A stretch of 64,000 bases of DNA from Chitinophagaceae bacterium (GTDB taxonomy: Bacteria; Bacteroidota; Bacteroidia; Chitinophagales; Chitinophagaceae), in the NCBI GenBank assembly GCA_032110825.1, contig JAULVY010000089.1, forward strand, positions 140 to 64,139. The letters run 5' to 3'. Under the pieces are notes generated by a model. That model worked only from the letters and a program-made list of their open reading frames with translations, ran no database searches and was not told where the DNA came from. This document shows positions 9,242 to 36,844 of this stretch, one piece after another. The translations under genes were made by a program, and so were the position numbers. The stretch's first letter is position 1; each line of letters begins with the position of its first letter.

Positions 9242-10948
9242 ATGACCCTACTCATCATCATTATTGCCTTGGCCTTGATTTTTGACTACATCAACGGTTT
9301 CCACGATGCAGCCAATTCTATTGCAACGGTGGTATCGACAAAAGTACTCACTCCTTTTCAAGCGGTATTGTGGGCAGCTTTTTTCAATATCATTGCCTAC
9401 TGGATTTTTCAAGACCACGCAGTTGCCAATACCATCAGCAAAACGGTGAATAAAGAATTCATAACACTCCATGTAATCTTAGCAGGATTGATTGCTGCAA
9501 TATTTTGGAATTTGCTTACTTGGTGGTATGGGATACCTTCTTCGTCCTCCCATACGCTAATCGGCGGATTTGCAGGTGCCGCCATTGCACATGCATTTAT
9601 CGATGAAGGCGGAGTGGTTGCTTTTGATAAAATTGTAGAGAGCAGCACGATAACCAAAACCGTATTGTTTATCTTTTTTGCCCCGATGATTGGAATGATC
9701 ATCTCTATTTTTATCACCATAGTCACGGTGATGAGAAATATTTGGCTTCGAATAGCCATCATCTCGTTGGTAACCGCCATCACGATCCTCTTGTTTGATG
9801 CATTTGAGGAAAGTAAAATGCAAGAAGGCCTAAAAAAGTTTATAAAATTAGATAAATACGAGGCAGATTTTGAAAAAGCAAATACCGGATTTGATTTAAG
9901 TTCAGCGTCAGATGAACAAAAAGAAAAATGGAATCAGGCAAAGAAAAAAGTAAACGATGCTAAATTGATTTTTCAAAAAATTTCGCCTTTAGTAGATAAC
10001 TACGACGAATTGGGCTCTGATTCAATTGCTTCTTTTGCATATTCAATTGGCTTACTCAAAGACATAGAAATTAGTAAACTAAAAGATGAAGTCAGGAATG
10101 CAAACAACTACCTAGTGCTTGAAGCACTTTCAGTGGAAACACCTGTAAAAAAACCAGAGTTTGATATTGCAAAAGTTGAAACCGAAAAATACAAAGTCCC
10201 GGTTAAAGCATACATCAACGGAGAGCTGAGCATCGATAGCACTTTGGTAGCACTGAATGCCATTTACCCCATCGACCCTAAAAATGCTGATAAGGTAAAA
10301 ATCAAACTACAAAAGTTCAACATCAAGAACTCCTTTAAAAATGATTTAGAGAAATCAGACAATTCAATCATTGTTTGGGGAATTTTTTGGGCTTCTCTGA
10401 TGTTCTCGTTGGTGTATTTATATGTTGAAAAAATCAGAACTCCAACAGCGTACACCGTTGCGAACATGTTTAAAAAACTACAGCTGTTTAGCTCCGCTGC
10501 TTTCAGTATTGGTCATGGTGGAAACGATGCTCAAAAAGTTATGGGTATTATTGGTGCTGCACTGATTGCGAATGGTGATATTCAGGATTTTGCGCAGCTG
10601 CCAGGCTGGGTGCCTATTTCCTGCTATTTAGCCATTGGATTGGGTACCATGAGTGGGGGTTGGAAAATTGTGAAAACCATGGGGACCAAGATTACCAAGG
10701 TTACTCCATTGGAAGGAGTATCGGCAGAGACAGCGGGTGCATTTACCCTATTTTTTACCGGACAAATGGGGATACCCGTTTCAACTACACATACCATCAC
10801 AGGATCAATAATCGGAGTTGGTGCCACCAAACGCTTAAGTGCAGTCCGTTGGGGCGTAACGTCCTCCCTATTGGTAGCCTGGATACTTACCATTCCAGTC
10901 AGTGGCCTATTGGCCGCGCTAGTTTATTGGTTAATGGGACTGTTTTAA
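9242..10948 (+). CDS. pit: Inorganic phosphate transporter (PiT family) with large internal insertion
   Basis: Both PiT signatures present (GFHDAANSIAT and GHGGNDAQK), plus SSSHTLIGG and PVSTTHTITG. Confidence 0.92.
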   Translation: MTLLIIIIALALIFDYINGFHDAANSIATVVSTKVLTPFQAVLWAAFFNIIAYWIFQDHAVANTISKTVNKEFITLHVILAGLIAAIFWNLLTWWYGIPSSSSHTLIGGFAGAAIAHAFIDEGGVVAFDKIVESSTITKTVLFIFFAPMIGMIISIFITIVTVMRNIWLRIAIISLVTAITILLFDAFEESKMQEGLKKFIKLDKYEADFEKANTGFDLSSASDEQKEKWNQAKKKVNDAKLIFQKISPLVDNYDELGSDSIASFAYSIGLLKDIEISKLKDEVRNANNYLVLEALSVETPVKKPEFDIAKVETEKYKVPVKAYINGELSIDSTLVALNAIYPIDPKNADKVKIKLQKFNIKNSFKNDLEKSDNSIIVWGIFWASLMFSLVYLYVEKIRTPTAYTVANMFKKLQLFSSAAFSIGHGGNDAQKVMGIIGAALIANGDIQDFAQLPGWVPISCYLAIGLGTMSGGWKIVKTMGTKITKVTPLEGVSAETAGAFTLFFTGQMGIPVSTTHTITGSIIGVGATKRLSAVRWGVTSSLLVAWILTIPVSGLLAALVYWLMGLF

Positions 10949-20808: not shown

Positions 20809-20843
20809 TTCCTTTTGTTCAAAGTTAATCAATCGTTCTCTAG

Positions 20844-20914
20844 CACGGGCACCTGGATTCGAACCAAGATCAAAGGTTTTGGAGACCTCTATTCTACCAT
20901 TGAACTATGCCCGT
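20844..20914 (-). tRNA. tRNA-Trp(CCA)
   Basis: ACGGGCATAGTTCAATGGTAGAATAGAGGTCTCCAAAACCTTTGATCTTGGTTCGAATCCAGGTGCCCGT; anticodon CCA. Confidence 0.96.
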
Positions 20915-20920
20915 TCTTTA

Positions 20921-20958
20921 AGAAACAAAGTACCCGGACGTGCATCCAGGTACTTTGT
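20921..20958 (-). terminator. Terminator-like hairpin after tuf
   Basis: ACAAAGTACC...GGTACTTTGT stem followed by TTCTT on the - strand. Confidence 0.6.
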
Positions 20959-20984
20959 TGGGAATGTTTATATGCCTTTAGGGC

Positions 20985-22172
20985 TTACTTCAAAATCTCG
21001 GTAACCTGACCAGCACCTACGGTACGTCCGCCTTCGCGAATCGCGAACTTCAGACCTTTTTCCATGGCGATGGGTTGGATCAACTTCACCTTTAGGTTGA
21101 TGTTGTCACCAGGCATAACCATTTCAGTTCCTGCAGGAAGTTCACACTCACCTGTTACGTCTGTAGTACGGAAGTAGAACTGAGGACGGTATTTGTTGAA
21201 GAATGGAGTATGACGTCCACCTTCATCCTTGCTCAATACGTATACTTCACCGTTAAATTCAGTATGCGGAGTGATTGAACCGGGCTTACAGATAACCATA
21301 CCACGACGGATTTGGCTTTTCTCAATACCACGGAGAAGTAAACCAGCATTGTCACCAGCTTCACCTTCATCGAGGAGCTTGCGGAACATCTCAACACCTG
21401 TAACGGTTGAAGTGAGTTTATCTTCCTGCATACCTACGATCTCAACACCTTCACCTACTTTAATTTTACCGCGCTCGATACGACCTGTAGCAACTGTACC
21501 ACGACCAGTGATGGTGAATACGTCTTCTACAGACATCAAGAAAGCAAGATCGACGGGTCTTGGAGGTAGAGGGATGTACTCGTCAACAGCATTCATCAAG
21601 TCGTTAACAGTGGCAACCCACTTTTCTTCACCAGCAAGAGCGCCAGTTGCAGAACCTTTGATGATTGGAGTATTGTCGCCATCGAAACCACGCTTTGTAA
21701 GTTCCTCACGGATTTCCATTTCAACAAGATCAAGCAATTCAGGATCATCAACAAGATCAACCTTGTTCATGAAAACTACAATACGGGGAACACCTACCTG
21801 ACGAGCCAACAAGATGTGCTCTTTGGTTTGAGGCATAGGACCGTCGGTTGCAGCAACCACGAGAATAGCACCATCCATCTGGGCAGCACCTGTAATCATG
21901 TTTTTAACGTAGTCAGCGTGACCTGGACAGTCCACGTGAGCATAGTGACGAGAATCCGTCTCGTATTCTACGTGTGCTGTGTTGATTGTAATACCCCTTT
22001 CTTTTTCTTCAGGAGCACCATCAATCTCATCATACTTCTTTGCCTGAGCAAGACCTCTCTTAGAAAGAATCTCGGTAATGGCAGCAGTCAATGTGGTTTT
22101 ACCATGGTCTACGTGGCCAATGGTACCAATGTTTACGTGGGGTTTGACCCGCTTAAAAGTCTCTTTAGACAT
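20985..22172 (-). CDS. tuf: Elongation factor Tu
   Basis: [27 protein letters not shown] and FMNKVD motifs. Confidence 0.99.
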
Positions 22173-22276
22173 TGTTATCCGTTTTTGTTTGTTTTAACTT
22201 GATTTACCTATTGAAACGGCCGCAAAATTATTGATTTTGGGTCGATTTTCAAAAGTTTTTTCCCTGAAAGGAGTTG

Positions 22277-22348
<72 letters not shown>

Positions 22349-22431
22349 ATGAAGCATGCTCCACCATCCTATCCTGCCCGTTTAGCCACCTGGTTAAAAT
22401 GGTTAGACATGATGCCGTGCAGCGGTAATTG

Positions 22432-22504
22432 AGCGGGAGACGAGGCTCGAACCCGCGACCTATAGCTTGGAAGGCTATCGCTCTACCAACTGAGCTACTC
22501 CCGC
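22432..22504 (-). tRNA. tRNA-Gly(TCC)
   Basis: GCGGGAGTAGCTCAGTTGGTAGAGCGATAGCCTTCCAAGCTATAGGTCGCGGGTTCGAGCCTCGTCTCCCGC. Confidence 0.96.
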
Positions 22505-22549
22505 AAAATACAATCGATAAAAAAGTTCAGACCCATTCCTTTCGAAATG

Positions 22550-22632
22550 TGGGCAGGAGTGGATTCGAACCACTGAAGTCGAAAGACAGCGGATTTACAG
22601 TCCGCCCCATTTGGCCGCTCTGGAACCTGCCC
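22550..22632 (-). tRNA. tRNA-Tyr(GTA)
   Basis: GGGCAGGTTCCAGAGCGGCCAAATGGGGCGGACTGTAAATCCGCTGTCTTTCGACTTCAGTGGTTCGAATCCACTCCTGCCCA; long variable arm. Confidence 0.96.
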
Positions 22633-22651
22633 CTCATGTTTGTCTTCGTTG

Positions 22652-22724
22652 AGCCAGAGAAGGGACTCGAACCCCCGACCAGCTGATTACAAATCAGCTG
22701 CTCTACCAGCTGAGCTACTCTGGC
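22652..22724 (-). tRNA. tRNA-Thr(TGT)
   Basis: GCCAGAGTAGCTCAGCTGGTAGAGCAGCTGATTTGTAATCAGCTGGTCGGGGGTTCGAGTCCCTTCTCTGGC. Confidence 0.96.
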
Positions 22725-24532: not shown

Positions 24533-25111
24533 ATGTTTACCGGAATAATTGAAGCGGTTGGAACCATTGAAAGTATTGAAAACAATGGGTCTAACAGGCA
24601 TTTTTGGCTTCGTTGTCCTTTTATTGATGAATTGAAAATCGACCAAAGTTTAGCCCATGATGGGGTCTGCTTAACGGTTGATGGGTTAAAAGAGAGCCAA
24701 TATCGAGTTACAGCAGTTGCTGAAACCCTAGAAAAAACGAATTTAATGGACTGGAAACCGGGAAAAAAGGTAAATCTGGAGCGTGGAATGATTTTGGGCT
24801 CTCGAATTGATGGACATTTGGTACAGGGGCATGTGGACTGCACGGGAACATGTATTGAGGTAATAGACCAGGATGGCAGTTGGAAATTCAGCTTTGAATA
24901 CCCCGAAAAATTCAGAAAGTTGATAATCGAAAAAGGATCTATTTGTGTGAACGGAACCAGCCTAACGGCCTTTGATTTGCGAAACAATCAATTCTCGGTT
25001 GCTATCATCCCCTACACGTATAACAACACGAATATCAATCAGTTACAAAAAAACTCCAAGGTGAACTTGGAGTTTGATATGGTGGGGAAGTATATTATGA
25101 GTAAATGTTAG
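24533..25111 (+). CDS. ribE: Riboflavin synthase
   Basis: MFTGII N-terminus, HDGVCLT, GHLVQGHVD, NGTSLT and VNLEFD motifs. Confidence 0.97.
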   Translation: MFTGIIEAVGTIESIENNGSNRHFWLRCPFIDELKIDQSLAHDGVCLTVDGLKESQYRVTAVAETLEKTNLMDWKPGKKVNLERGMILGSRIDGHLVQGHVDCTGTCIEVIDQDGSWKFSFEYPEKFRKLIIEKGSICVNGTSLTAFDLRNNQFSVAIIPYTYNNTNINQLQKNSKVNLEFDMVGKYIMSKC

Positions 25112-25239
25112 GAACAAGCTTCATCACCTGCCCCCGAGGAAGGTTCTCCTAAGGTTTCACATTGGGCGGAACCTTTTTCAGTTTTAGACACAGGGACTAT
25201 ATCTAAAATTGTCGGCTTTTGCCATTGTAACTTGCTCAT
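25108..25239 (-). CDS. Lasso peptide precursor (A), 43 aa: MSKLQWQKPTILDIVPVSKTEKGSAQCETLGEPSSGAGDEACS
   Basis: Translated by hand (ATG 25239, TAA 25110-25108); starts 19 bp after the cyclase stop on the same strand; WxxP leader motif, Thr before the predicted cleavage site, Gly/Ser/acid-rich core, C-terminal Ser. Confidence 0.88.
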   Translation of the reverse strand: MSKLQWQKPTILDIVPVSKTEKGSAQCETLGEPSSGAGDEACS

Positions 25240-25258
25240 AAACTGAATTTATGTAAAA

Positions 25259-27202
25259 CTAAAGAACTTTCCTGAGAAATCGAAATAATGAAAGATTTTC
25301 TATGAATTTATATCCTAATTCATACTTTTTTTCAATATCTGTTTCTGATTTCATTTTTTTATACATCTGAACTAGGTTAATGCCAATCTGACTATTATGA
25401 CTGGAATTAAAAACGTGTAGTGGTTTTGAAAATTCAGAAAGTAAAATACCAATACTTGAGTCATTTGAAATTAGAAATGGTAAATCTCTCATTTGATAAC
25501 GCTTTTCATTTTGATTAATTACCGAAAATTCAAATTTCATTTTTAGTATGCTACTAAGCATATATTTCAAATTCCCATTCTTAAAAAAATAGTACTCAGG
25601 AACTGAAAATGAAAATTTTTGAAATCGAATATCCGCAGTTGGATCAAGCATTAAAATAGCTGATTCCTTGCTTTTTTGGTACCATGACCCAGTTATTAAT
25701 ACTTGATTGTATTTACTATACTTCAATCTAAATTTTTTCGAACTTAAAAAAAAAGATATCCCAACAATAATATCCTCGCTTTTTATTCTTCGTTTTTCAA
25801 ATTTTTTAAAAACAAGTAAGTCTAGTGTTTTGTTGCCAGTTTTTTCATACAAGATATATAACGAGAAAAAAGAATAATAAATCATTCTCAACCAAGAAGC
25901 AAGAGGCCTCTTTATAAAATAGCTCAAGGTAAATCTGAGTGACTTAGAGTACTTTTCTTTGAATTGATTTAAATTATGAAAAGCTTTTTTCCACTTAAAG
26001 TGAATCAAATCATGTAAAACAATATTAGTTGGACAATAAGATAATGTTATGTTCCCAAGTTGTGCGTTTAGAATTATTTTCAAAGAATCATCTTTGGCTT
26101 GCTTAATCATCTTATCTAACCATAATTCATGTGCAGATATTTTAGGATTTAAAAAATCTAATCTCTCATGAGACCTAAACAATTGACCAAAACTATAATT
26201 TGAACAATTTATAGTATGATGAATAATATTTGTAAACTGCTTTGTAAATGAATTTGCAATTATGGATTCATCGTTTTTTTTAATGCCTGGAATTTCAGTA
26301 TCATAAGTATATATTGGAGCAAGTGTATATGCCCAAAGTGAATCTTTCTTATATTCAAGCTCTTTGGATAAATAATAAGTTATGCACGTTGAATCGCTTC
26401 CAGAACTCAAAAGAACTCCACTTTTTACACTAGCAGATAATTTAGAGCGAACTGACAGGTATAACGCAGACTCAAATTCAAAAAAAAGATCGTTCTCGTC
26501 TTTGAAATTCACTTCAGGTTGATCAAATATTTTTTCACTCCAATCAAATCTTTCATATTTTCCCAACGAATAAAATAAACATTCCCCCGCAATTAATTCG
26601 TTCACACTTTTAAACAACGTCTTTCCTATTTCTATTCTTAACTTATTTATCAGTAATCTTGACACTTGATATGAATCGATATCAATTTCTTTGCCTAAAA
26701 AAATTGAAAAAAGACTAATCTCATCCGAGAAATATAAACAACCGTTTAATTCGGTAAAAAATAGCCCACAATTTCCCGTTGCACTTCTATATAATGAAAC
26801 AGATACGACTTCTTTTGAATACACAATAAAAGCCCAATCTCCTTCCAAATGAAGAACGCATTTATCCTTCCATTTTTTATAGGCCATCATGGCCAACAGT
26901 GAGTCGGGAGTCACCTTAAGCTCAGCTTGTGTTAATCCTAATTTGTCCCCAAGCTCATCGCGATAATCCAAACGAAAATGGCCTGCCAATACATAATTTT
27001 TACAGTCGCTAAGTAATGGTTGTCTATCATACTCCGCCGCATTCCCAACTCTTAACATCAGATGTCCTACAGCAAAATGATCATCAACAAAAGTTTCCAG
27101 CCCATCATAGCCGTCTTGATGCACAGCATTTTTCATCTGCTCAAATTGATCTAAGTCAATTCCATCCCCACCCGGTTTGAATATTCCAAAAAAACCACTC
27201 AT
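25259..27202 (-). CDS. Lasso peptide cyclase (C protein; asparagine synthetase-like)
   Basis: Non-catalytic Ntn-like N-terminus (MSG, no Cys1; RLDYRDEL, LEGDWAF), PP-loop variant LSSGSDS and DPTADIR; coupled to B2 by an ATGA overlap. Confidence 0.88.
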   Translation of the reverse strand: MSGFFGIFKPGGDGIDLDQFEQMKNAVHQDGYDGLETFVDDHFAVGHLMLRVGNAAEYDRQPLLSDCKNYVLAGHFRLDYRDELGDKLGLTQAELKVTPDSLLAMMAYKKWKDKCVLHLEGDWAFIVYSKEVVSVSLYRSATGNCGLFFTELNGCLYFSDEISLFSIFLGKEIDIDSYQVSRLLINKLRIEIGKTLFKSVNELIAGECLFYSLGKYERFDWSEKIFDQPEVNFKDENDLFFEFESALYLSVRSKLSASVKSGVLLSSGSDSTCITYYLSKELEYKKDSLWAYTLAPIYTYDTEIPGIKKNDESIIANSFTKQFTNIIHHTINCSNYSFGQLFRSHERLDFLNPKISAHELWLDKMIKQAKDDSLKIILNAQLGNITLSYCPTNIVLHDLIHFKWKKAFHNLNQFKEKYSKSLRFTLSYFIKRPLASWLRMIYYSFFSLYILYEKTGNKTLDLLVFKKFEKRRIKSEDIIVGISFFLSSKKFRLKYSKYNQVLITGSWYQKSKESAILMLDPTADIRFQKFSFSVPEYYFFKNGNLKYMLSSILKMKFEFSVINQNEKRYQMRDLPFLISNDSSIGILLSEFSKPLHVFNSSHNSQIGINLVQMYKKMKSETDIEKKYELGYKFIENLSLFRFLRKVL

Positions 27203-27624
27203 CGTTTTAATGCTTGATGTGTAAATGATGCGACCACTGTAAAGTTATCCATACCGGGTTTACCAGTAACAATATAATTACCCGACTTTACCCATGCGTG
27301 AGCCGACAATCCATTTCCTTCCTTCGCTAATCCAAAATAAATGGTTGAAGGAATTGATCGATTTCCCAACATCCATCTAGCCGTCAATGCCTGATCATAA
27401 CATTTACTGGAATGAAAACTCAATTTAGCAGCTCGTTGTATAGCTACATAAATAGATTTTACCTTCTGCGTGTTAGAGGATGATTGAACTTGCAATTCAT
27501 TTAGCTTACCCAAGTTCGCAGCAATTTTTTTAAATGGGATAATAAGAATAATCAATTTGGAAGTATGAAGGAAGATGAAAGCTTCCACGAATAAAGCAAG
27601 ATCTTGGAATGTTCTGTATTTCAT
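27199..27624 (-). CDS. Lasso peptide leader peptidase (B2, transglutaminase-like)
   Basis: KCYDQALTA (Cys), YFGL and AHAWV (His) motifs; ATGA overlaps with RRE and C. Confidence 0.93.
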   Translation of the reverse strand: MKYRTFQDLALFVEAFIFLHTSKLIILIIPFKKIAANLGKLNELQVQSSSNTQKVKSIYVAIQRAAKLSFHSSKCYDQALTARWMLGNRSIPSTIYFGLAKEGNGLSAHAWVKSGNYIVTGKPGMDNFTVVASFTHQALKR

Positions 27625-27890
27625 TCGATTTGCGAAATAATACCTTTTTCAACCATTTGATTCAATAACTCCTTCGTATCATGCACGCATAATTCTCTAT
27701 CAACTTCAAATTGTTCCATTAATTTTTCAACCAATTGATTGAAATCCATACCATCTTTCAAATGATTCCAAATCACTGAAGCAACAGAATTTAATCCAAA
27801 ATAAAATCCAGAGTCCATGTCTAACATCACGACTTCATCTCCAATTTTGGACTGGATCACCTCTTTTTTATGAATATACCGTTCTGCCAC
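27621..27890 (-). CDS. PqqD-family RiPP recognition element (lasso B1/E)
   Basis: GDEVVMLDMDSGFYFGLNSVASVIWNHL and VDRELCVHDTKELLNQMVEKGII; 89 aa. Confidence 0.94.
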   Translation of the reverse strand: MAERYIHKKEVIQSKIGDEVVMLDMDSGFYFGLNSVASVIWNHLKDGMDFNQLVEKLMEQFEVDRELCVHDTKELLNQMVEKGIISQIE

Positions 27891-27944
27891 GATTTAAATT
27901 ATTGATTAAAATTACATTCTTTAAATCTTACCTGCAACCAATAG

Positions 27945-28847
27945 TTATGAATTTAATAATTCTGCAACTGCATCTACAACTTCTTGAACATGATCCCCTT
28001 CTGCTGGTCGTGAAACAACAAAAGCATTTACTTGCCCCGCAAGCAGACTTAAAACCTTAAAATGCTCTTCCTTTAGATTCATATGCCCCAAATTTTCACC
28101 TCGATACGCATTGGAATCTAATCGCTGGAACAGCTCAATACCCGTTAAAGAACTAACCGAAACTTCGCTGCATTCATCGGACTTTTGTAAAAAAATGGCT
28201 TGCCTTGGTATATTAGGTTCCATGGAAAATGTTTCGTGAAAATAAAGTCCATACTTCTCCATATCAGGACGAATTTTTCGATCTACACGATCCCAAATCT
28301 TAAACCGATCTATCGTTTCTTTCCAAAGTTTAATCATGGGATATGAGGAATCTATCCAGACCTCATCTGCGTGTATTCTGGGTACAACTACATCATCAGA
28401 AATGACTTCGAATCCCTGCTCAAGCAATCCAGCCAACGTTGTGGACTTCCCCGAACCAGAATGACCAAAGACTAAAATGGTCTTTTCAGATTTTCGAACT
28501 GCGGCACAATGCAATGGAATTTGCCCTTTTTGCTGCAATGCAGCTGCAAAAGCATTGGATAAACAAAAAAGTCTCACTGCATCATTCGATGCATTTTGAA
28601 ATGGTTTGATCACAATTGAGTTACCACCCTGTACCTCATACTGGGCAACATGGGGTACTATAAGTTTATAAGATACCTCCTCAACATGCACAAACGATTT
28701 TTCTCTCAATGAATCAAAATTAGAATCAGAATATCCATCTTGAACTGAAACCATTAATTCAAATGAATCTTCTGATGAGATGGGCATTAACTCAGGAAAG
28801 GAGATTTCCGATGCAAGCTTTAACCCATATGCCCAATAATGAAACAC
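27945..28847 (-). CDS. HPr-kinase-like lasso peptide kinase (PadeK/PsmK-type)
   Basis: PLHCAAV, Walker A GHSGSGKST, ISDD Walker B, and SSYPMIKLW. Confidence 0.88.
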   Translation of the reverse strand: MFHYWAYGLKLASEISFPELMPISSEDSFELMVSVQDGYSDSNFDSLREKSFVHVEEVSYKLIVPHVAQYEVQGGNSIVIKPFQNASNDAVRLFCLSNAFAAALQQKGQIPLHCAAVRKSEKTILVFGHSGSGKSTTLAGLLEQGFEVISDDVVVPRIHADEVWIDSSYPMIKLWKETIDRFKIWDRVDRKIRPDMEKYGLYFHETFSMEPNIPRQAIFLQKSDECSEVSVSSLTGIELFQRLDSNAYRGENLGHMNLKEEHFKVLSLLAGQVNAFVVSRPAEGDHVQEVVDAVAELLNS

Positions 28848-28853
28848 TTCATT

Positions 28854-28873
28854 TATCTTTAGGCATAAAGATA
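28854..28873. promoter_or_regulatory. Perfect inverted repeat TATCTTTA-GGCA-TAAAGATA in the 42-bp divergent intergenic region of the lasso cluster
   Basis: Each arm resembles a -7 box (TAnnTTTG) read outward. Confidence 0.55.
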
Positions 28874-28889
28874 CTAACTAAGTTTTCGA

Positions 28890-30662
28890 ATGCAACATCG
28901 ATCGGACGCAAAAAGATTCTTCCGTGAAATAAGAAGTATGACTACCGAAATACTTTCGGTTGATATGCCTGTTTCTATTGGTGTAATATTATCTAAACTA
29001 ATTGTTTCGATTCTACCCCTATCCATCCTGTGGTTGATAAAAACACTGGTTGATAAAATCAGTAGTCTCCAAATTGATTTTTACGAACTTCTATTCTACA
29101 TTATTCTTTTCTGTATTATCCAAATCGCCATCTTGGTAATGCAACAAGTCAGTTCATTTTGGGAATCTAGATTGCAAAACAAAACCCTAGACTATTTTTC
29201 AAATCGTATCATTGAAAAATCAGTTTCGATTGATTATACCTATTTTGAAAATCCTGCATTTCAGAATACATTGTTTTTGGCTCAAAATCAAGCTCGTTTT
29301 AGAATCAATCAATTGCTACCTGCCATTTATGGGAGCTTTGGCAATGGCATTTCTCTCATCTTCATCATTGCCTTTTTCATTGGAATCAAAGCTTACTTTT
29401 TTTTATTGATACTCATTCTTGCATTACCCATAACGCTTCAAAAATGGTACGAAGGAAAAAAAATGAATGACCTTGACTTTACATTATCCAGCAAGGAAAG
29501 AGAAAGCAATTACATCTTCCAATCTCTTACCGGATTGCAGTCAGCAAAAGAAGTGAGGCTGTATAATTTTGAAAAATCATTTCAAAACAAATACAACCAG
29601 ATTCGGACATTGATTGTAGGAGAAAAAATGAAAATTCAAAAAAGCTCAATTAAAAAAAACACAGTCATCGGTGTATTAGAAATTTTATTTGCCGGCGGCT
29701 TATTTGCTTATTTGGGTTATGATGTTTTGAGAGGCAGTATAAGTTTGGGTTTATTTATATTGTACCTACAGGGTACTCAACGCCTACAAACAATTTCAAA
29801 AGGCTTTTTCCAGTCCCTTTTGCAACTCTTTCAATTACGACTTTTTGTTAAGGATTTACATGCATTCCTAAATTTGAGTGAAAACAAAAACATAAATCCG
29901 AGTATACAAGAATTAGAAATTAACTCTTTATCTATTCGCAATCTTTCATTTCGCTATCCAGGTAATACCATACACACTCTAGAAAACATAAATTTAAATG
30001 CCCAAAAAGGTAAAATTATCGCTTTAGTCGGCGAAAATGGATCGGGCAAATCTACGCTTGTGAAATTACTCGCTGGCTTATATAACCCGGCCCCAGATTC
30101 AATCTTTGTTAATAACAATGATCTACTTTCCGTCCCCAAACCAGTTTGGTATAGGCAATCGGCTGTTTTATTTCAAGATTTTGAAAAGTATTTTTTTGAA
30201 GTGGACAAAAACATTCATTTTGACTTGAATGAAAGCAACAATTTAAGAAAGGAAAGTATTGCCGCAGCCTCACAATCCTTGGCCCACGAATTTATCCTGA
30301 ATTTGAGTAAACAATACGATACCCGTTTGGGAAATTTATACGAAGGTTCTGAACAGTTGAGCGGAGGACAGTGGCAAAAACTGGCTTTAGCTAGAATATT
30401 TTTTAAAGATCGGCCGGTTGTAATCTTAGATGAACCCAGTAGTGCTTTAGATGCATTTGCAGAGTTATCTCTTTATGAAAATATCAAGAATAGTTTTAGC
30501 AATAAGATCGTCATTATCGTTTCGCATCGATTGTACAACCTAAAAATAGCTGACTACATCTATGTGCTGTCGCATGGAAAAATTGCAGAAGAAGGAAATT
30601 TTAATGATTTGATTCAGCAAAACGGATTATTTTATTCGATGTACGAAAAACAAAAAATCTAA
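28890..30662 (+). CDS. ABC exporter (TMD+NBD), lasso D protein
   Basis: N-terminal TM helices, GENGSGKST, LSGGQWQKLALAR, ILDEPSSALD and VSHRL. Confidence 0.9.
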   Translation: MQHRSDAKRFFREIRSMTTEILSVDMPVSIGVILSKLIVSILPLSILWLIKTLVDKISSLQIDFYELLFYIILFCIIQIAILVMQQVSSFWESRLQNKTLDYFSNRIIEKSVSIDYTYFENPAFQNTLFLAQNQARFRINQLLPAIYGSFGNGISLIFIIAFFIGIKAYFFLLILILALPITLQKWYEGKKMNDLDFTLSSKERESNYIFQSLTGLQSAKEVRLYNFEKSFQNKYNQIRTLIVGEKMKIQKSSIKKNTVIGVLEILFAGGLFAYLGYDVLRGSISLGLFILYLQGTQRLQTISKGFFQSLLQLFQLRLFVKDLHAFLNLSENKNINPSIQELEINSLSIRNLSFRYPGNTIHTLENINLNAQKGKIIALVGENGSGKSTLVKLLAGLYNPAPDSIFVNNNDLLSVPKPVWYRQSAVLFQDFEKYFFEVDKNIHFDLNESNNLRKESIAAASQSLAHEFILNLSKQYDTRLGNLYEGSEQLSGGQWQKLALARIFFKDRPVVILDEPSSALDAFAELSLYENIKNSFSNKIVIIVSHRLYNLKIADYIYVLSHGKIAEEGNFNDLIQQNGLFYSMYEKQKI

Positions 30663-31762
30663 TTGCTTTTTATCCTTCGGAATACCCAAACAAATGGCTT
30701 GAGAGGGATGTAGAGAAAAAACAATGTATCCGGCAGAGGAATGATTTTCCAATCCAACGGAGATATCATGTATTTCAATAAAAGTCGAATATTCATTATT
30801 TGTTTAGATAAACTAAAAAGATACTGAAAGTGTTTCCATCGATTTGAATCATTGGCATTAAAACCATTCTCGTCGCTCATTAACGTAAAAATATAGTCTA
30901 ACTTTCTTCTGTGTAAAGTATTGTCATTAAGATATTGAAAGCCTATTGGCAATGGTTGAGAAAAAATAGCAAGTAAGACTTTTAAAGAAATTTCAAGATG
31001 TTCCAAACATTCTAATTCAATTGCCCTCTGCCGAACAGAAGTCCAGTTTAAAGTTGATTGTCGAATAATCATGAATAAATCGACCAACCACTTTAATCTA
31101 AACCACCCATGCTCGGTTCCATGTACTGATAAATACAATAGCAATTCTACCTCATCAAGCGAACGAACATCCTTTAGATTAAACCCTCCCAGTGCTCCCC
31201 TCCATTTCCAATGCAATTCTACAATTGCTGGAGATGTTGTGCCGTCCCCAAAAAAAGGCATGTCGTGATTCACGTAATGTAAAAATCTCTTCTGTGTAGG
31301 AGTATACAATTCATAGTCTTTCTCCCTTTTTAAGCCAAAATCAACCAACAAATCTGATACTAGTTCAATATCTCCCTCCGAAACCAATAGATCAACATCC
31401 AAAACATGCCGCAAAGCTAAATCAGTGTAATAACGTTCTGACAAAGACACCCCTTTCAAAAAAACATGTTTGATTTTTCTTTCATTTAGGCGTTGTCCAA
31501 ACTGCAATTGAAATCGCTTAGCGATTAAAGCTGTTTTTTGATTTTGCAGTACTTCCTGCGTCCATTTCAAATGAAATGATTCACTGAACTGCTTTGAATC
31601 TGAAAGTTTAGAATACACAAGAGAACCTACTCGATGCCTATGCATCAAATTACTTAAGTTGGTTTCATCGATTTGCGAATCAACTTCAGAAAGTTTAGTC
31701 GAACTGCATTGAATTGTTTCAAGAATGAGTTTAAATTCGGGTGATGCCAATGCTGAATACAT
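30659..31762 (-). CDS. Nucleotidyltransferase family protein (NTP_transf_5; PadeN/PsmN-like)
   Basis: FLKGVSL...YY...RHVLDVDLLV, VELHW, and HGTEHGWFRLKWLVD. Confidence 0.85.
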   Translation of the reverse strand: MYSALASPEFKLILETIQCSSTKLSEVDSQIDETNLSNLMHRHRVGSLVYSKLSDSKQFSESFHLKWTQEVLQNQKTALIAKRFQLQFGQRLNERKIKHVFLKGVSLSERYYTDLALRHVLDVDLLVSEGDIELVSDLLVDFGLKREKDYELYTPTQKRFLHYVNHDMPFFGDGTTSPAIVELHWKWRGALGGFNLKDVRSLDEVELLLYLSVHGTEHGWFRLKWLVDLFMIIRQSTLNWTSVRQRAIELECLEHLEISLKVLLAIFSQPLPIGFQYLNDNTLHRRKLDYIFTLMSDENGFNANDSNRWKHFQYLFSLSKQIMNIRLLLKYMISPLDWKIIPLPDTLFFLYIPLKPFVWVFRRIKSN

Positions 31763-31771
31763 AAGAATTCA

Positions 31772-34700
31772 TTATCGCATCAGGTACATTTTCCCATAAC
31801 CGCTTTTGAAATAGCTATCGGTATTGTAACTGCCTGCTCGCAATTTATCAATTTGCTTTCCGTTAATATTGGCCATCACTCGATACAGATAAACACCATT
31901 GCCTACTGGCTGTCCATATTGATCTCTGCCGTCCCATTTGTACTCAGTTATGTTATTGCCAATACGAATCGGACCAAGTTCCTCCTTTGTTATTTCTCGG
32001 ATAATCTTACCGGTAACGGTGAGAATTTGAATCCTAAAATGTGTGGGGAGTTCAGAGCCTGTAAGTGTAAATACAAAAGCAGTTGAAGTTGTAAAGGGAT
32101 TTGGATAATTCAGAAGATTGGTGATCATGGACTTGGTGTACACCTGAAACAGGACACTATAAACAATAGCCCCAGACAAATTTCCACTTCTGTCTTTTGC
32201 TGTAACAATCAGTTCATACTCTCCGTCTTCTGTCAAAAAGGGTTTAAACAATATCGAAGCCTCGTTATTATTGCCTCCAAGCGGATTGGTAGACGGATTA
32301 AATTGAAGGGTATCGTTATCAAATCGAATAGTTCGTAATGAGCCATCCGGATAACGTAGCTGGACTTTAAATAAACTAGTATCATTTAGTGCTAGATACT
32401 TAGAATCATCTTTAAGTTTAATTAAAATCGTTGGCTTGGGACTAACGATGTCCTTATTCAAAATATGAACGCCATCAAACGTTACATCCAAGTTAGGTGC
32501 GTAGGTATCGGCACGGACATGTACTACCTTGGTAAGGTAATTGTTAAAAAGATTTTGTTCAGGCTGATGATAATTGGGATTAAAATTGATGAAAATGGTG
32601 TTATCACCTGCCAGTGTTTTCGTGTCAACAGTAAAATCAATTAAAATCGTATCTCCCTTTATAATAGGCTTTCGCAATTCATTCAAAACAATCCGCGTAT
32701 TGTTTTTAGGATCTGTTAAGGTCATATAAACCATCACACTATCAAAAGGAAGATCGCTAATATTCTTAAATGCAATTGAAAACCGCATCGGCTCGCCTAT
32801 TTCTAAAGTATCTTTTACCATCGTTATGACTCCGGAAGTCAACGAGCCTTCAGGAACAGGACTATATTTCACTTGAAGGTATCTAGGTTGCCATGGGGAA
32901 TAGTTTAACGTGTCAGAACTCTCATGCTGTATTCTTAAAAATGGGAACTGTTGAGCATCAATAAAAGTCAAACTTGTATCCTTTATTAAGTCCTCACTTT
33001 GATAGAGCAAAGTTTCAACGGAAGAACCAGATAAACCAAAAACCTTATAAGCAATTTTATCTTTTGAATTTTTTTCTTGGGAAGAGCCCTTCCAATGGAT
33101 AGACCCCCAGGACTTAGCTGGCCCCACTAATTGATGACTGTTACGACCACTACTAATAATAGACTCATATGTTATTTCACTATTTAAAACATCAGTAGCA
33201 CTTTCACCTATTTTTTGATCTAACACCTTCCATTCCCCATTTGATAACTTCTCAGCGACAAATAAAAAGGGCACACTTTTCGTAAACGAATCAACAAGTG
33301 TAAAACCGATTGATTTTAGTCTATGATAAATAGAATTATTCGAGCCATAAATTAATGTATCCTGCTGCCATTTATCTATAAATTCTGGACTACTATTATA
33401 CGATAATGATGCCCAATTATTTAAGACAAGCAAAGTTCCGGATGGTACTTTATCTAAAAACTCCATTGCAAATTTACGATAGGAGCTTTGATTGTAGTAA
33501 TACCAAAATTGATACAGTTTTACAGGCCTACACTGATTAGGCATAATACTATTGTAAAGTGTGCCGCTGGTATTGTATGGATTTTCAATTGGACTTGCCT
33601 TGGCCATATCAATTAAAGTAAATTCAAATGAATTAACTGCATTGAAACAGCTACTTGAATAGAGTAGATCTAAATTATTAGCTACAGTATTAAACCCATA
33701 AGGGTGCAGCCTTGAAGTAACCCTTAGATTTTGAACTTCAGTATCAAATGCTAGGAATCGATTTGTATTATACTTTAAGTCTGTATATGTGTTTTTTAAA
33801 TACTGATAATAATGCGACTGATTCCAACCCGTAGAACTATTGCTTAGGTAAACAAAAGAAGAGGTAGATGACCATTGGACAGGCATGGATGAACTTGTTG
33901 TTGCACGTGCCACTCTCCAATAAAAAACGAGACTATCTCGTAATTGCAACGATGGACTAAACTCAATTAATCCACCTAAGCTGGTCTGGTTTTGGGTAAC
34001 CTTCAATGGTGAATTGAATAGCTCCGTTGTATCTACTTCCAATATAAAATTGGTTGGTGTTTGAAAAAACAAACTTGTAGAAGCTATCAGTTTAACCGAA
34101 TTGGTATTTACAATAGCAAACTGCTGTGGGCTAACTGGTCTAACATCGTCTTCAGAAATCGAAAATACTTTTGAAGCCGAGTTGTTGATGTTGGTTATTT
34201 CTTTTATCAAATCGCTTCCATCCAAACTCACCAAAATCTTATTTTGACCTTTATCATTTAACGGGTTTATCGGGACAGAAAACTCAATGGAGTCCACATT
34301 GAATAGTGGCTTACGAATTGCATCGTAAAGTACAACTACAGTTCCATCCGGCAACTCACGCTTGATCGTTACCCGCAATGAATCCCGTGTAGCCTTACCG
34401 ATATTGTAAAACTTGACTTTTAAATCAAAGTTGCTGTTGGTGATGTTCAATGGGTTCGGACTAACTCGAATCAATGGCTCTTCAATGGCATAATCTGGAA
34501 GTGGCTGAGGATAAAGTGAAACAGCAGGGTCACCACCAAGTAAGATTTGTTCAACAGTAATTTGATTAAAGAAATCAAAACTACCCCCTTGAGTTAAGAC
34601 ATCATTCAACGTATTAAGCTGGAGTTCACCAATATTAGACATATAATCCTGCTGTGAAATTCTCCTATACAAATTATACGTATACAGATTCAAATAATTA

Positions 34701-36844
34701 ACAATCCCAAAATGGGTACTGGCTAAAAAACCAATACTACCGCGCTTAGGAGTTAATACATAGTTTTCTGTTATCGATTTTTTCCCAGTGGTAGAACGTA
34801 ATGTGTCGTAAATGAAAAAGTTACCAGAGTTACAACCATTTGCCAAGAACAAAGGGTATTTACCGGGGTTCTCAAAAATAGTTGGGTCATCTAAGTTAAA
34901 TTCCATCGAGTTGGCAGATGAATGCCCGAAATAGGTAATCATCCCCATCCCTTCATTGAATAGAGAGGATAAAGCCCCTGAATTTACAAGGTCTATACCC
35001 GCAGAAGTAACTTTCTCAAAATTATATACTTTGGCCCCATATGAAGTATCTTTTACCAAATTACCAGCGGTATTCATATAGCCCAGGATGGTAGCTTGCA
35101 AAAACGGATCGCCACCTCCAATTACATGGGCAAAGTTTTTCATCCATGCCTTGTCCTGAACCGTTTGATTGGCTGAATTTAGTACGAGATTATGCTCTTT
35201 AACTTTTTCCAGATATGCCATCAACTCATCTCCTGTAGTTACTGAAATCCTCCCAATAGGAGTTTCGGGTGTAGGATCCAAAGAGGTTGATGCTAATATA
35301 TTATCTGAACCCGGATTGCCAAAAGTAGGTATCAGGTTTATCGATTCTGTTACTCCTCGGTTTTCATTGTATCGATATTGGTCGTATGTAATCCCTTTAC
35401 CAACCAAAAGAATATACTTTATAGGCAGTGAATATTTGGTCCGCACAAACTCTAAAAAGTTTTTAATAGACAGCGGGTGCTTTTTAATTCCAAAAGCAAA
35501 TTGATCCACCAATTCATCTATATCATAAATCCCAACCTTATAAGACCCACCTTCTACACTTGATCGGTAGGTTTGATAATTTTGCAAGGCATCACCAGAA
35601 GAACTTTTTCGAATACTATTATGCGAAATAATCAAATAATCGCCCTGAGCTGCCGCAAGTGAATAGTCAACAAATTTCTTTCGCTGAAGTCCGGATACAT
35701 TTTTAAACTGCGCGGGCGATGTTGCTAAAAGCACAAAATTTCTTTGTAAACCAGCAGGTAAGGCAAAGCGAAATTTTCCTGCAACAGTCATATCCGCCTG
35801 ATACCGCTTGTTGTTGGTAAGATCATACAAAACAGGTGCCGCACTGTTACTATTGAAATTGGTTATTTCTAAAAAATTACCTGCTGTTGTTGCTGGTAGC
35901 GAAAATTCAAAGACCTGTGATCCCCCAAAATCAAATTGCCGGGGATAGGTTAACTCGTATTTACCCAATGTTATGCGATCATTGGATACGTCTGAACCAT
36001 TGATTATTCTTATGGTATCTACTGTTCGTCCAATCTGAGATTTTGTAAACCCAAAACTCCGAATTAAAGAAACGAAATAATTCATTGGATTATCAAAAAC
36101 AAAATTCCCGTTAATCATTACCTGCAGTCTTCTGGGATTTTGAGCATTACCAAAAGCTGTTATTCTAAAACTAGGGTCAGGGCCTAGGGGTGAAACTTTT
36201 AAATCACTGTATTGCTCAACCAAAGGATTTGATGGGTTGATATTTCTGCTGCTCCAGCCTTCTCCATTATCGTAACTAGATGAATACACATATACACCCA
36301 CTACGGCAGCCAGACCTGGATTGATCTGATCTTTAAAATTTCTAGAAAGGGTGTGCATGAAATAAGGCTCAACAGGAAGTGTATTTGAGCTAACGTTGTT
36401 TGCCGAAGCTGTAATTCGTGCATTGGGATTAGCCGAATTTACGGTAAGAAAATATGCAGCAGTATCCGTTTGCAAACTGAATTTATCGGAAAGTTGATGA
36501 GCTGGTACTTTATAAAGAGCTGCATCCACTTTTCCATCGTTCATTTTTCCATAAAACTCCAAATAATCTGCTGAACCCAATTGTCCGGATGAAACACTGG
36601 TATACAATGGAACTTCTACTCCGTTTCTCCACAATTGAAAATACTCGGCATTGGTTGTAGATAATCCCGCAGCTTGTAGCGTTAACATGGGAATACGATA
36701 CAATCCGTCTTCCCCTACTTTAAATTTATAATAGGTCTTGCTATAATCAATCCATGCGTTATTGAATTGAGCTTGCAACTGTGTTATACTGAACAGAAGA
36801 ACTGCCAGACCTAGAAAAAATTTATATGCTACTCCTCTAGTCAT
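31772..36844 (-). CDS. Large C25 (gingipain/PorU-like) cysteine peptidase with T9SS C-terminal domain
   Basis: Signal peptide; YFGHSS (His) and ANGCNSG (Cys) dyad; C-terminal NYPNPF...WDGRD...GVYLYR domain; coupled to porV. Confidence 0.85.
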   Translation of the reverse strand: MTRGVAYKFFLGLAVLLFSITQLQAQFNNAWIDYSKTYYKFKVGEDGLYRIPMLTLQAAGLSTTNAEYFQLWRNGVEVPLYTSVSSGQLGSADYLEFYGKMNDGKVDAALYKVPAHQLSDKFSLQTDTAAYFLTVNSANPNARITASANNVSSNTLPVEPYFMHTLSRNFKDQINPGLAAVVGVYVYSSSYDNGEGWSSRNINPSNPLVEQYSDLKVSPLGPDPSFRITAFGNAQNPRRLQVMINGNFVFDNPMNYFVSLIRSFGFTKSQIGRTVDTIRIINGSDVSNDRITLGKYELTYPRQFDFGGSQVFEFSLPATTAGNFLEITNFNSNSAAPVLYDLTNNKRYQADMTVAGKFRFALPAGLQRNFVLLATSPAQFKNVSGLQRKKFVDYSLAAAQGDYLIISHNSIRKSSSGDALQNYQTYRSSVEGGSYKVGIYDIDELVDQFAFGIKKHPLSIKNFLEFVRTKYSLPIKYILLVGKGITYDQYRYNENRGVTESINLIPTFGNPGSDNILASTSLDPTPETPIGRISVTTGDELMAYLEKVKEHNLVLNSANQTVQDKAWMKNFAHVIGGGDPFLQATILGYMNTAGNLVKDTSYGAKVYNFEKVTSAGIDLVNSGALSSLFNEGMGMITYFGHSSANSMEFNLDDPTIFENPGKYPLFLANGCNSGNFFIYDTLRSTTGKKSITENYVLTPKRGSIGFLASTHFGIVNYLNLYTYNLYRRISQQDYMSNIGELQLNTLNDVLTQGGSFDFFNQITVEQILLGGDPAVSLYPQPLPDYAIEEPLIRVSPNPLNITNSNFDLKVKFYNIGKATRDSLRVTIKRELPDGTVVVLYDAIRKPLFNVDSIEFSVPINPLNDKGQNKILVSLDGSDLIKEITNINNSASKVFSISEDDVRPVSPQQFAIVNTNSVKLIASTSLFFQTPTNFILEVDTTELFNSPLKVTQNQTSLGGLIEFSPSLQLRDSLVFYWRVARATTSSSMPVQWSSTSSFVYLSNSSTGWNQSHYYQYLKNTYTDLKYNTNRFLAFDTEVQNLRVTSRLHPYGFNTVANNLDLLYSSSCFNAVNSFEFTLIDMAKASPIENPYNTSGTLYNSIMPNQCRPVKLYQFWYYYNQSSYRKFAMEFLDKVPSGTLLVLNNWASLSYNSSPEFIDKWQQDTLIYGSNNSIYHRLKSIGFTLVDSFTKSVPFLFVAEKLSNGEWKVLDQKIGESATDVLNSEITYESIISSGRNSHQLVGPAKSWGSIHWKGSSQEKNSKDKIAYKVFGLSGSSVETLLYQSEDLIKDTSLTFIDAQQFPFLRIQHESSDTLNYSPWQPRYLQVKYSPVPEGSLTSGVITMVKDTLEIGEPMRFSIAFKNISDLPFDSVMVYMTLTDPKNNTRIVLNELRKPIIKGDTILIDFTVDTKTLAGDNTIFINFNPNYHQPEQNLFNNYLTKVVHVRADTYAPNLDVTFDGVHILNKDIVSPKPTILIKLKDDSKYLALNDTSLFKVQLRYPDGSLRTIRFDNDTLQFNPSTNPLGGNNNEASILFKPFLTEDGEYELIVTAKDRSGNLSGAIVYSVLFQVYTKSMITNLLNYPNPFTTSTAFVFTLTGSELPTHFRIQILTVTGKIIREITKEELGPIRIGNNITEYKWDGRDQYGQPVGNGVYLYRVMANINGKQIDKLRAGSYNTDSYFKSGYGKMYLMR

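Follow-up and report, generated by a model that had tools for sequence, protein, structure and literature searches.

A 64,000-nucleotide stretch of the genome of a Chitinophagaceae bacterium (contig JAULVY010000089.1 of assembly GCA_032110825.1, positions 140 to 64,139; hereafter the window, in whose own coordinates its features are given) carries seven genes between 25108 and 31762, for a small precursor, a cyclase, a leader peptidase (B2), a leader-binding RRE protein, an HprK-like kinase, an ABC exporter and a nucleotidyltransferase-fold enzyme. Together these quite probably constitute an intact lasso-peptide pathway of the paeninodin type that has been vertically inherited within a freshwater Chitinophagaceae lineage. 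The main point of interest is not the decoration expected of the kinase and nucleotidyltransferase but an anomaly in the precursor. Lasso peptides are defined by an isopeptide bond from the N-terminal alpha-amine to an acidic residue at core position 7-9, and this rule is built into genome-mining tools. The predicted precursor family departs from it, carrying a Lys-x5/6-Asp/Glu unit at a variable distance from the cleavage site, a pattern suggesting that the Lys side chain closes the ring or that the peptide is cut a second time.

The precursor gene A (25108..25239, minus strand) encodes 43 amino acids, divided into the leader MSKLQWQKPTILDIVPVSKTE and the core KGSAQCETLGEPSSGAGDEACS. The leader region (amino acids 1-21; 25177..25239, minus strand) contains the RRE-binding motif W6-Q-K-P9 and Thr20, the presumed -2 residue, while the predicted core (amino acids 22-43; 25111..25176, minus strand) starts at Lys1, contains Cys6, Glu7 and Cys21 and ends in a C-terminal Ser22. 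For comparison, 48 different precursors were compiled from open reading frames (ORFs) downstream of related cyclases and from peptides retrieved by two profile searches (11 matches in a word-indexed search, 18 in an exhaustive profile search); such small ORFs are rarely called, and most were read from the DNA of the locus. These precursors are related by descent, so counts within the family are not independent events, and some of the statistics below were computed on the first 39 of the 48. A 34-57-residue ORF stands downstream of the cyclase gene in all related loci with enough sequence past that gene, and the family profile retrieves the window peptide itself (P0128). Trp and Pro of the leader WxxP motif are invariant in the precursor alignment, the motif reading WQKP in the window, and a leader Thr is likewise invariant, placed 13 residues after the Trp (W+13) but at W+14 in the window subclade and in the distant locus L060. 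Because these homologous small ORFs have the same WxxP...Thr leader and C-terminal Ser, the 43-residue ORF can be taken as a real precursor and not a product of chance. In characterised paeninodin-like precursors WxxP is a hallmark, with its Trp at position -15 (PMC13381572); the family Thr thus corresponds to the classical -2 residue, with the cut expected after the residue that follows. A penultimate Thr is a known recognition element for leader removal (PMC10368454). Two peptides are of unusual architecture: P0135 (462 amino acids) contains eight tandem copies of a unit with 'WWFKPELSVLSSS', a mimic of the leader motif, and P0137 (110 amino acids) resembles two precursor-like peptides fused in one ORF, the first core of which fits neither the 7-9 rule nor the Lys-acid spacing.

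Beyond the leader, the core is hypervariable across the family, and one pattern persists over 12 arm lengths despite near-complete turnover of the other core residues: in 45 of the 48 precursors a Lys is followed at a distance of 6 or 7 residues by an Asp or Glu. Exactly one Lys is present in 37 of the first 39, and 38 of those 39 contain the Lys-acid pair, whereas 20,000 within-core shuffles gave it in 7.8 on average and never in more than 18. The pair is not fixed in place; its Lys occupies core positions 1-13 (0-12 residues past the predicted Thr(-2) cleavage site) and its acid positions 7-20, at 12 different offsets. An acid at core position 7-9 is found in 22/48 precursors, including the window (Glu7) and its four nearest relatives, and among the first 39 its frequency is at chance level (15, compared with 14.5 +/- 3.0 in shuffled cores). 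All 26 cores that break the 7-9 rule carry the Lys-acid pair, and each of the three cores lacking it has its Asp at position 9 precisely; P0139 and P0141, two of the three, contain no Lys at all, and P0141 directly follows a distant cyclase homologue on a Bacteroidota contig. Cysteines number two or none in 47 of the 48, and in 32/39 two-Cys peptides one Cys precedes the Lys and the other is close to the C-terminus. The window subclade instead has its first Cys inside the ring (position 6), and the pattern K1-x-G-x-x-C6-[E/D]7 ... C-S is common to the window and its closest relatives, L066-L069. The residue before the Lys is Gly or Ala in 26/45 precursors, against a background of ~20%, and Pro, Phe, Thr, Gln or Asn in several. 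One long-form relative, L004, has the core ADCSSVGKVNGLNDALSPTTCQS. A Ser closes 45 of the 48 peptides (38 of the first 39), the others ending in Thr or in a frameshifted tail. The L009 precursor (9951-10064) ends in ...DGVGLGT, with no C-terminal Ser and a Lys-Asp spacing of +5, and may be a truncated or frameshifted copy.

Comparison of the predicted cores across the family favours the side-chain (epsilon) amine of Lys1 as the group that closes the ring. For the window peptide itself we propose this tentatively, at a little under an even chance; with slightly more reserve, we extend the proposal to the cyclases of the Chitinophagaceae family at large, which would close the macrolactam by the conserved Lys epsilon-amine and not by the N-terminal alpha-amine. 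Under epsilon closure the free N-terminus would grow into an arm of 0-12 residues, the arm Cys present in most members would staple to a Cys at the end of the threaded tail, and the product would be a two-tailed lasso or a rotaxane-like peptide locked by a disulfide. With an arm of zero length, the window peptide would have a Lys1 N-epsilon-Glu7 bond, its alpha-amine free, Cys6 and Cys21 joined in a disulfide, and a modified phospho-Ser22. Rings closed by epsilon-amines would have 26 atoms in 33 cores, 27 in five (including the window) and 29 in seven. These sizes are compatible with known rings of 8-9 residues; canonical ones count 25-28 atoms, and an epsilon-lactam from Lys(i) to Asp(i+6) counts 26. 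The epsilon model needs no additional enzyme, would explain why Lys is dispensable only where an alpha-amine sits at the right distance, and would account for the retained N-terminal arm with a Cys that pairs with the tail Cys; ring Cys6 of the window subclade would then have its functional equivalent in the arm Cys. Alpha-linked rings as large as 10-20 residues were also considered, and set aside as implausible for homologous cyclases and for threading.

Two other ways of closing the ring have to be weighed against the Lys side chain. In a canonical, class-III-like lasso the Lys1 alpha-amine would be joined to Glu7 in a seven-residue ring, with Cys6 and Cys21 in a disulfide; in other family members the conserved Lys would serve recognition or activity, and the long forms would be produced by a different route. 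The alpha-amine is what all characterised lasso cyclases use (PMC9576775), a legal K1...E/D7 ring follows from the Thr(-2) rule in the window and its four closest relatives, and the short-form relatives all have Asp at exactly position 9. Yet such a lasso leaves 26/48 members without an acid at 7-9 and gives no reason for the Lys that stands 6-7 residues before an acid in all of those 26; it also sets a 23-atom ring in the window beside 28-atom (9-mer) rings in the short forms, built by homologous cyclases. We hold it to be possible, on the doubtful side. A second or alternative cleavage would instead start the ring at the small residue before the Lys, giving an alpha-linked [G/A]-K-x5/6-D ring of 8-9 residues once the variable stretch from Thr-x to the ring start, serving as spacer or extended leader, had been removed; for the window this would put the cut after Thr20, with an eight-residue ring running E1...E8. 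Both this reading and side-chain closure fit the window, since its Lys is core residue 1 and its Glu residue 7. The frequency of Gly/Ala before the Lys (26/45) fits the usual lasso preference at position 1, ring sizes (7-9) would all be canonical, and genome-mining tools that seek an acid at 7-9 would predict exactly these cores. The -2 residue of such a cut is not conserved, whereas Thr at W+13 is invariant and would have to be ignored by the protease; the scissile bond would lie at 12 different distances from the RRE motif, over a range of 12 residues, and Pro or Phe would become position 1 in some members. Furthermore, the spacer Cys matched by a tail Cys (32/39) and the parity of Cys (47/48) argue that the spacer is kept in the product, and a second cleavage seems unlikely to us.

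The earlier note on this DNA, made from its letters, had called the region a complete lasso-peptide cluster; the ORF list places the seven ORFs on the coordinates and strands it gave (25108-31762), and the lasso assignment is borne out by domain searches, conserved catalytic residues, fold comparison and leader features. The cyclase C (25259..27202, minus strand) is a 647-residue Asn-synthetase-like macrolactam synthetase with GATase_7 and Asn_synthase domains; among NCBIfam models it fits NF033535 (lasso cyclase) best, at E 1e-40 and 140 bits, the cutoff being 525 bits. Its N-terminus reads M-S-G, a Ser replacing the glutaminase Cys, and its PP-loop S266-G-x-D270-S271 is invariant in 23 homologues. 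The AF2 (AlphaFold2) model of the cyclase (predicted local distance difference test, pLDDT, 77) resembles asparagine synthetase B, beta-lactam synthetase, carbapenam synthetase and TsnB9 (E 1e-14 to 1e-9); in a sequence and fold search of the PDB with this protein no lasso cyclase was detectable. Residues 1-120 are its best-conserved part, with dozens of invariant positions, yet the worst modelled (pLDDT 35-55), and its C-terminal 200 residues lie outside all Pfam and NCBIfam model matches. The leader peptidase B2 (27199..27624, minus strand; 141 amino acids) is a transglutaminase-like cysteine protease (Transglut_core3; PF13471, E 2e-18) that passes the cutoff of NF033537, 'lasso peptide biosynthesis B2 protein' (75.9 bits against 33); Cys75 and His109 of its triad are invariant and position 126 is acidic (E/D) in 48/50 homologues. 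The RRE protein B1 (27621..27890, minus strand; 89 amino acids) is a PqqD-family leader-binding chaperone (PF05402, E 3e-18) with the lasso PqqD models NF033536/NF033530 as its nearest NCBIfam entries and solved lasso RREs as its best PDB matches: TbiB1 (3e-11), 9x90_B (1e-8) and TfuB1.

The tailoring enzymes are recognised chiefly by fold and motif. The HprK-like peptide kinase K (27945..28847, minus strand; 300 amino acids, HprK/PEPCK fold) gives weak matches to HprK_rel_A, HprK_rel_B, ScmC and Hpr_kinase_C (PEPCK P-loop), and its AF2 model (pLDDT 88.5) fits the PEPCK and HprK/P folds. Its H113, its P-loop G128-x-S-G-x-G-K-S-T136 (with K134) and D151-D152 are invariant among 26-41 homologues, and with H113, K134 and D151-D152 all unchanged it shows the equivalent of the His-Lys-Asp-Asp motif reported for lasso-peptide kinases (PMC9266682). 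The nucleotidyltransferase-fold enzyme N (30659..31762, minus strand; 367 amino acids, PsmN-like) matches NTP_transf_5 (PF14907) at E 2e-36 and 126 bits; its D122-x-D124 is invariant in 20 homologues and matches the catalytic DxD of PsmN, D134/D136 (PMC6993621). The exporter D (28890..30662, plus strand; 590 amino acids) is an MsbA-like fused permease-ATPase (ABC_membrane and ABC_tran), nearest among NCBIfam models to MsbA and bacteriocin exporters. Thus the placing of the cluster in the paeninodin/pseudomycoidin-like group, which the earlier note had based on its kinase and nucleotidyltransferase, agrees with the H-K-D-D and DxD motifs, the WxxP leader, the C-terminal Ser and the literature, and the claim of an intact pathway finds its counterpart in catalytic motifs conserved in each enzyme.

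Whereas the genes, catalytic motifs, folds, synteny and precursor pattern were observed, every chemical step in what follows is drawn from characterised homologues. By analogy with these, the RRE would bind the WQKP leader motif of the 43-residue precursor, and the HprK-like kinase would phosphorylate the C-terminal Ser43 of the linear precursor, possibly more than once. The PF14907 enzyme would then add a further group onto the Ser phosphate; in pseudomycoidin the group carried on the phosphate is a hexose (PMC6993621). B2 would cleave after Thr20-Glu21 to release the core KGSAQCETLGEPSSGAGDEACS, and the cyclase would adenylate the Glu7 side chain and, with the C-terminal tail enclosed, join it to an amine of Lys1 as a macrolactam. 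A ring-to-tail disulfide would probably form between Cys6 and Cys21 after export by the MsbA-like ABC transporter.

The RRE/B2 and B2/C junctions are ATGA overlaps, as previously claimed, and strands and a 4-nt overlap likewise confirm the divergence of the exporter gene D from the kinase gene and the convergence of D on the nucleotidyltransferase gene N. N starts 9 nt past the stop of the upstream porU2, an adjacency kept in all related loci, and may be co-transcribed with porU2 instead of with the rest of the cluster. That neighbour (31772-36844, minus strand; 1690 amino acids, C25 peptidase; NF052324, 845 bits) is a PorU2-type sortase of the type IX secretion system (T9SS) and is treated here as a neighbour of the pathway genes, not one of them. 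A role as the pathway protease was considered and set aside as the default reading, the protein being a T9SS sortase that is better conserved than the cluster; a gingipain-like cut after Lys by this C25 peptidase was also dismissed, as no sensible N-terminus would result. At the other end, the precursor gene shares its last 4 nt (25108-25111) with the 3' end of the convergent ribE. The sole terminator-like hairpin after the precursor gene (25051..25075, minus strand; 10-bp stem and T-run, 33 nt downstream of the precursor stop) sits within the last 60 nt of the ribE coding sequence, at its 3' end; it matches a consensus only, and sites of this kind are no more numerous in the region than in shuffled sequence. 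Scans of the region for sigma-70 promoters and terminators gave counts at or below shuffled expectation.

Related loci were found in a scan of species-representative genomes (17, nearly all from freshwater Chitinophagaceae metagenome-assembled genomes, MAGs) and in a metagenome scan (48 further loci, mostly from lakes). More than 60 independent loci share the seven-gene arrangement, far past chance, and in all loci that are long enough the gene order is that of the window: PorU2, N, (D), K, B1, B2, C, A, ribE, rpsU, xerD-like, hpf, tRNAs, tuf, secE, nusG, rplK. Past the xerD-like and hpf-like genes the window carries a tRNA-Thr/Gly/Tyr/Thr array, the EF-Tu gene and tRNA-Trp (20843-22724 and 20985-22172), and as the tRNA-tuf-secE-nusG-rplK region is common to the relatives it confirms a core-genome setting. 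The Bacteroidota host proposed earlier agrees with these syntenic Chitinophagaceae MAG loci. Identity to the window is highest in the flanking genes (PorU2 57-66%, ribE 67-79%) and ranges within the cluster from B1 (48-66%), B2 (41-57%) and D (42-52%) to K (38-49%), N (31-46%) and C (25-39%), the nearest cyclase homologue being 37-39% identical. Synteny at a core-genome site means that the cluster is old and vertically inherited, and it rules out a horizontal transfer island. The predicted pathway is therefore a lineage-wide, vertically inherited locus and not the rarity of a single genome, and retention of the seven-gene unit at one chromosomal site, over more than 60 loci and ~30-65% protein identity, indicates long-term purifying selection. 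In the 11 loci that lack the ABC gene, porU2 is followed by a single co-directional block of N, K, B1, B2, C and A; these loci must use another export route or retain the peptide in the cell. A distant cluster, L060/L063 (2174-8662, on contigs of 620-680 kb), has a cyclase 26% identical to that of the window, a PF00685 sulfotransferase with a second sulfotransferase nearby, two HprK-like genes and the RRE on the opposite strand; its precursor core, NVAFKTASAPDGGPSFADYNS, has no acid at 7-9, a Lys5-Asp11 pair (+6) and a C-terminal Ser.

The window sequence is also present in freshwater metagenomes. In a metatranscriptome (run X7, from the same study as the DNA runs) two contigs of at least 99% identity cover 27136-27396 and 27468-27733, crossing the C/B2 and B2/RRE junctions; no such contig was seen in that run over the precursor, kinase, ABC or nucleotidyltransferase genes. 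The two contigs are weak evidence for co-transcription of C, B2 and RRE in situ. This minimal RNA signal, the fast divergence of the cyclase (31-39% identity) and a GC content lower in the cluster (0.34-0.36) than in its flanks (0.39-0.42) might together be taken for a decaying or silent relic that makes no product in its host. All seven ORFs are intact, however, with conserved catalytic residues, the ATGA overlaps keep their translational coupling, and more than 60 diverged genomes have kept the seven-gene unit at one site; we consider a relic highly improbable. The lower GC fits better with relaxed codon constraint than with transfer.

Several points weigh against an intact paeninodin-type pathway. 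The cyclase, RRE and kinase all score under curated NCBIfam cutoffs, and Lys as the first core residue is unusual in lasso peptides, where Gly, Ala, Ser and Cys dominate. The Thr of the window subclade stands at W+14 and not at W+13, which makes the cleavage site uncertain; the loss of the ABC exporter from 11 related loci (L010, L015-17, L024, L027, L050, L054, L059, L064 and L072) means that export via D is not obligatory; and the RNA contigs are possibly DNA carry-over. The product could also be an unthreaded or uncyclised one, either branched-cyclic or a linear polyphosphorylated peptide, as has precedent in pseudomycoidin made without its tailoring genes and in the LPP family, whose clusters have kinase, nucleotidyltransferase, RRE and ABC genes in common with the window and give linear products. 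A cyclase and a B2 with intact catalytic motifs in all loci speak against it, as do the lack of an SpI-type signal peptidase and a leader with WxxP and not the YxxP of the LPPs. An unthreaded or uncyclised product is one we judge very unlikely.

The locus is one of many predicted lasso clusters, yet it belongs to a phylum for which no characterised example was found in the literature. A full-text literature search, with some key lasso papers outside its scope, returned no lasso peptide from Bacteroidota and no Lys-linked lasso ring. To our knowledge, experiments on the phosphorylated (paeninodin-type) subgroup have covered only Bacillota and one proteobacterium; the locus shows that among abundant freshwater Chitinophagaceae the subgroup is old and conserved, belongs to the core genome and has a hypervariable core. 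Such conservation, together with the hypervariable core, points to an ecological role (antagonism or signalling) and not to accidental acquisition. If the conserved Lys does close the ring, lasso cyclase chemistry would be wider than assumed, a new peptide topology would result, and precursors of the Chitinophagaceae family would be mis-called by current tools. Near-identity to a characterised cluster was looked for and similarity to characterised proteins was found to be remote, so the cluster may still be called probably uncharacterised, as the earlier note had it.

Among known systems, the closest are pseudomycoidin (psmCAKB1B2ND, Bacillus pseudomycoides) and paeninodin (Paenibacillus dendritiformis), both from Bacillota, which have the same set of A, C, B1/B2, kinase and ABC genes; the PF14907 nucleotidyltransferase is common to the window and the psm cluster but not to the paeninodin cluster. 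The likeness extends to a W/YxxP leader, a Thr near the cleavage site, a C-terminal Ser as the phosphorylation site, and the kinase H-K-D-D and nucleotidyltransferase DxD motifs present in the window. In contrast, the window host is a Gram-negative member of the Bacteroidota, a freshwater Chitinophagaceae, and its N gene lies apart from the operon, downstream of PorU2 and converging on a divergent ABC gene. Protein similarity is remote, the RRE matching the solved paeninodin-like RRE 9x90_B at E 1e-8 and the cyclase falling far short of the NCBIfam lasso-cyclase cutoff. The predicted core is Lys-first with a pair of Cys, whereas both known peptides are Ala-first (PMC6993621), and in the window family the spacing between the cleavage site and the Lys-x5/6-acid unit varies. 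The lasso cluster of Amoebophilus was examined as a further comparison and set aside as a different, unrelated case.

The class III lasso BI-32169, of actinobacterial origin, has a Gly1-Asp9 ring, a disulfide from ring Cys6 to the C-terminal Cys19 and no phosphorylation. Cys6 and the penultimate Cys21 of the window core resemble this layout, the disulfide of the window peptide being a presumed one. Another comparison is offered by the LPPs (Popov et al. 2026, PMC13381572), whose clusters also have an HprK-like kinase, a PF14907 nucleotidyltransferase, a discrete RRE and an MsbA-like transporter. These clusters combine a SpI-type (SipW-like) peptidase and a YxxP leader with the lack of a cyclase, whereas the window has B2, a cyclase and WxxP (PMC13381572); the ORF list and domain search revealed no signal peptidase in or beside the cluster. 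Graspetides such as the microviridins, with their side-chain-to-side-chain omega-amides, would be a likeness only if the Lys side chain closes the ring. Their side-chain lactams (Lys to Asp/Glu) or lactones are made by an ATP-grasp ligase, a domain that the domain search found in none of the seven cluster proteins, and activation in the window would proceed by adenylation on an enzyme of the Asn-synthetase fold. It is with the paeninodin/pseudomycoidin subgroup that the window has most in common, and at the level of sequence it carries every mark by which that subgroup is recognised: the kinase motif, the C-terminal Ser, the WxxP leader and the PF14907 DxD.

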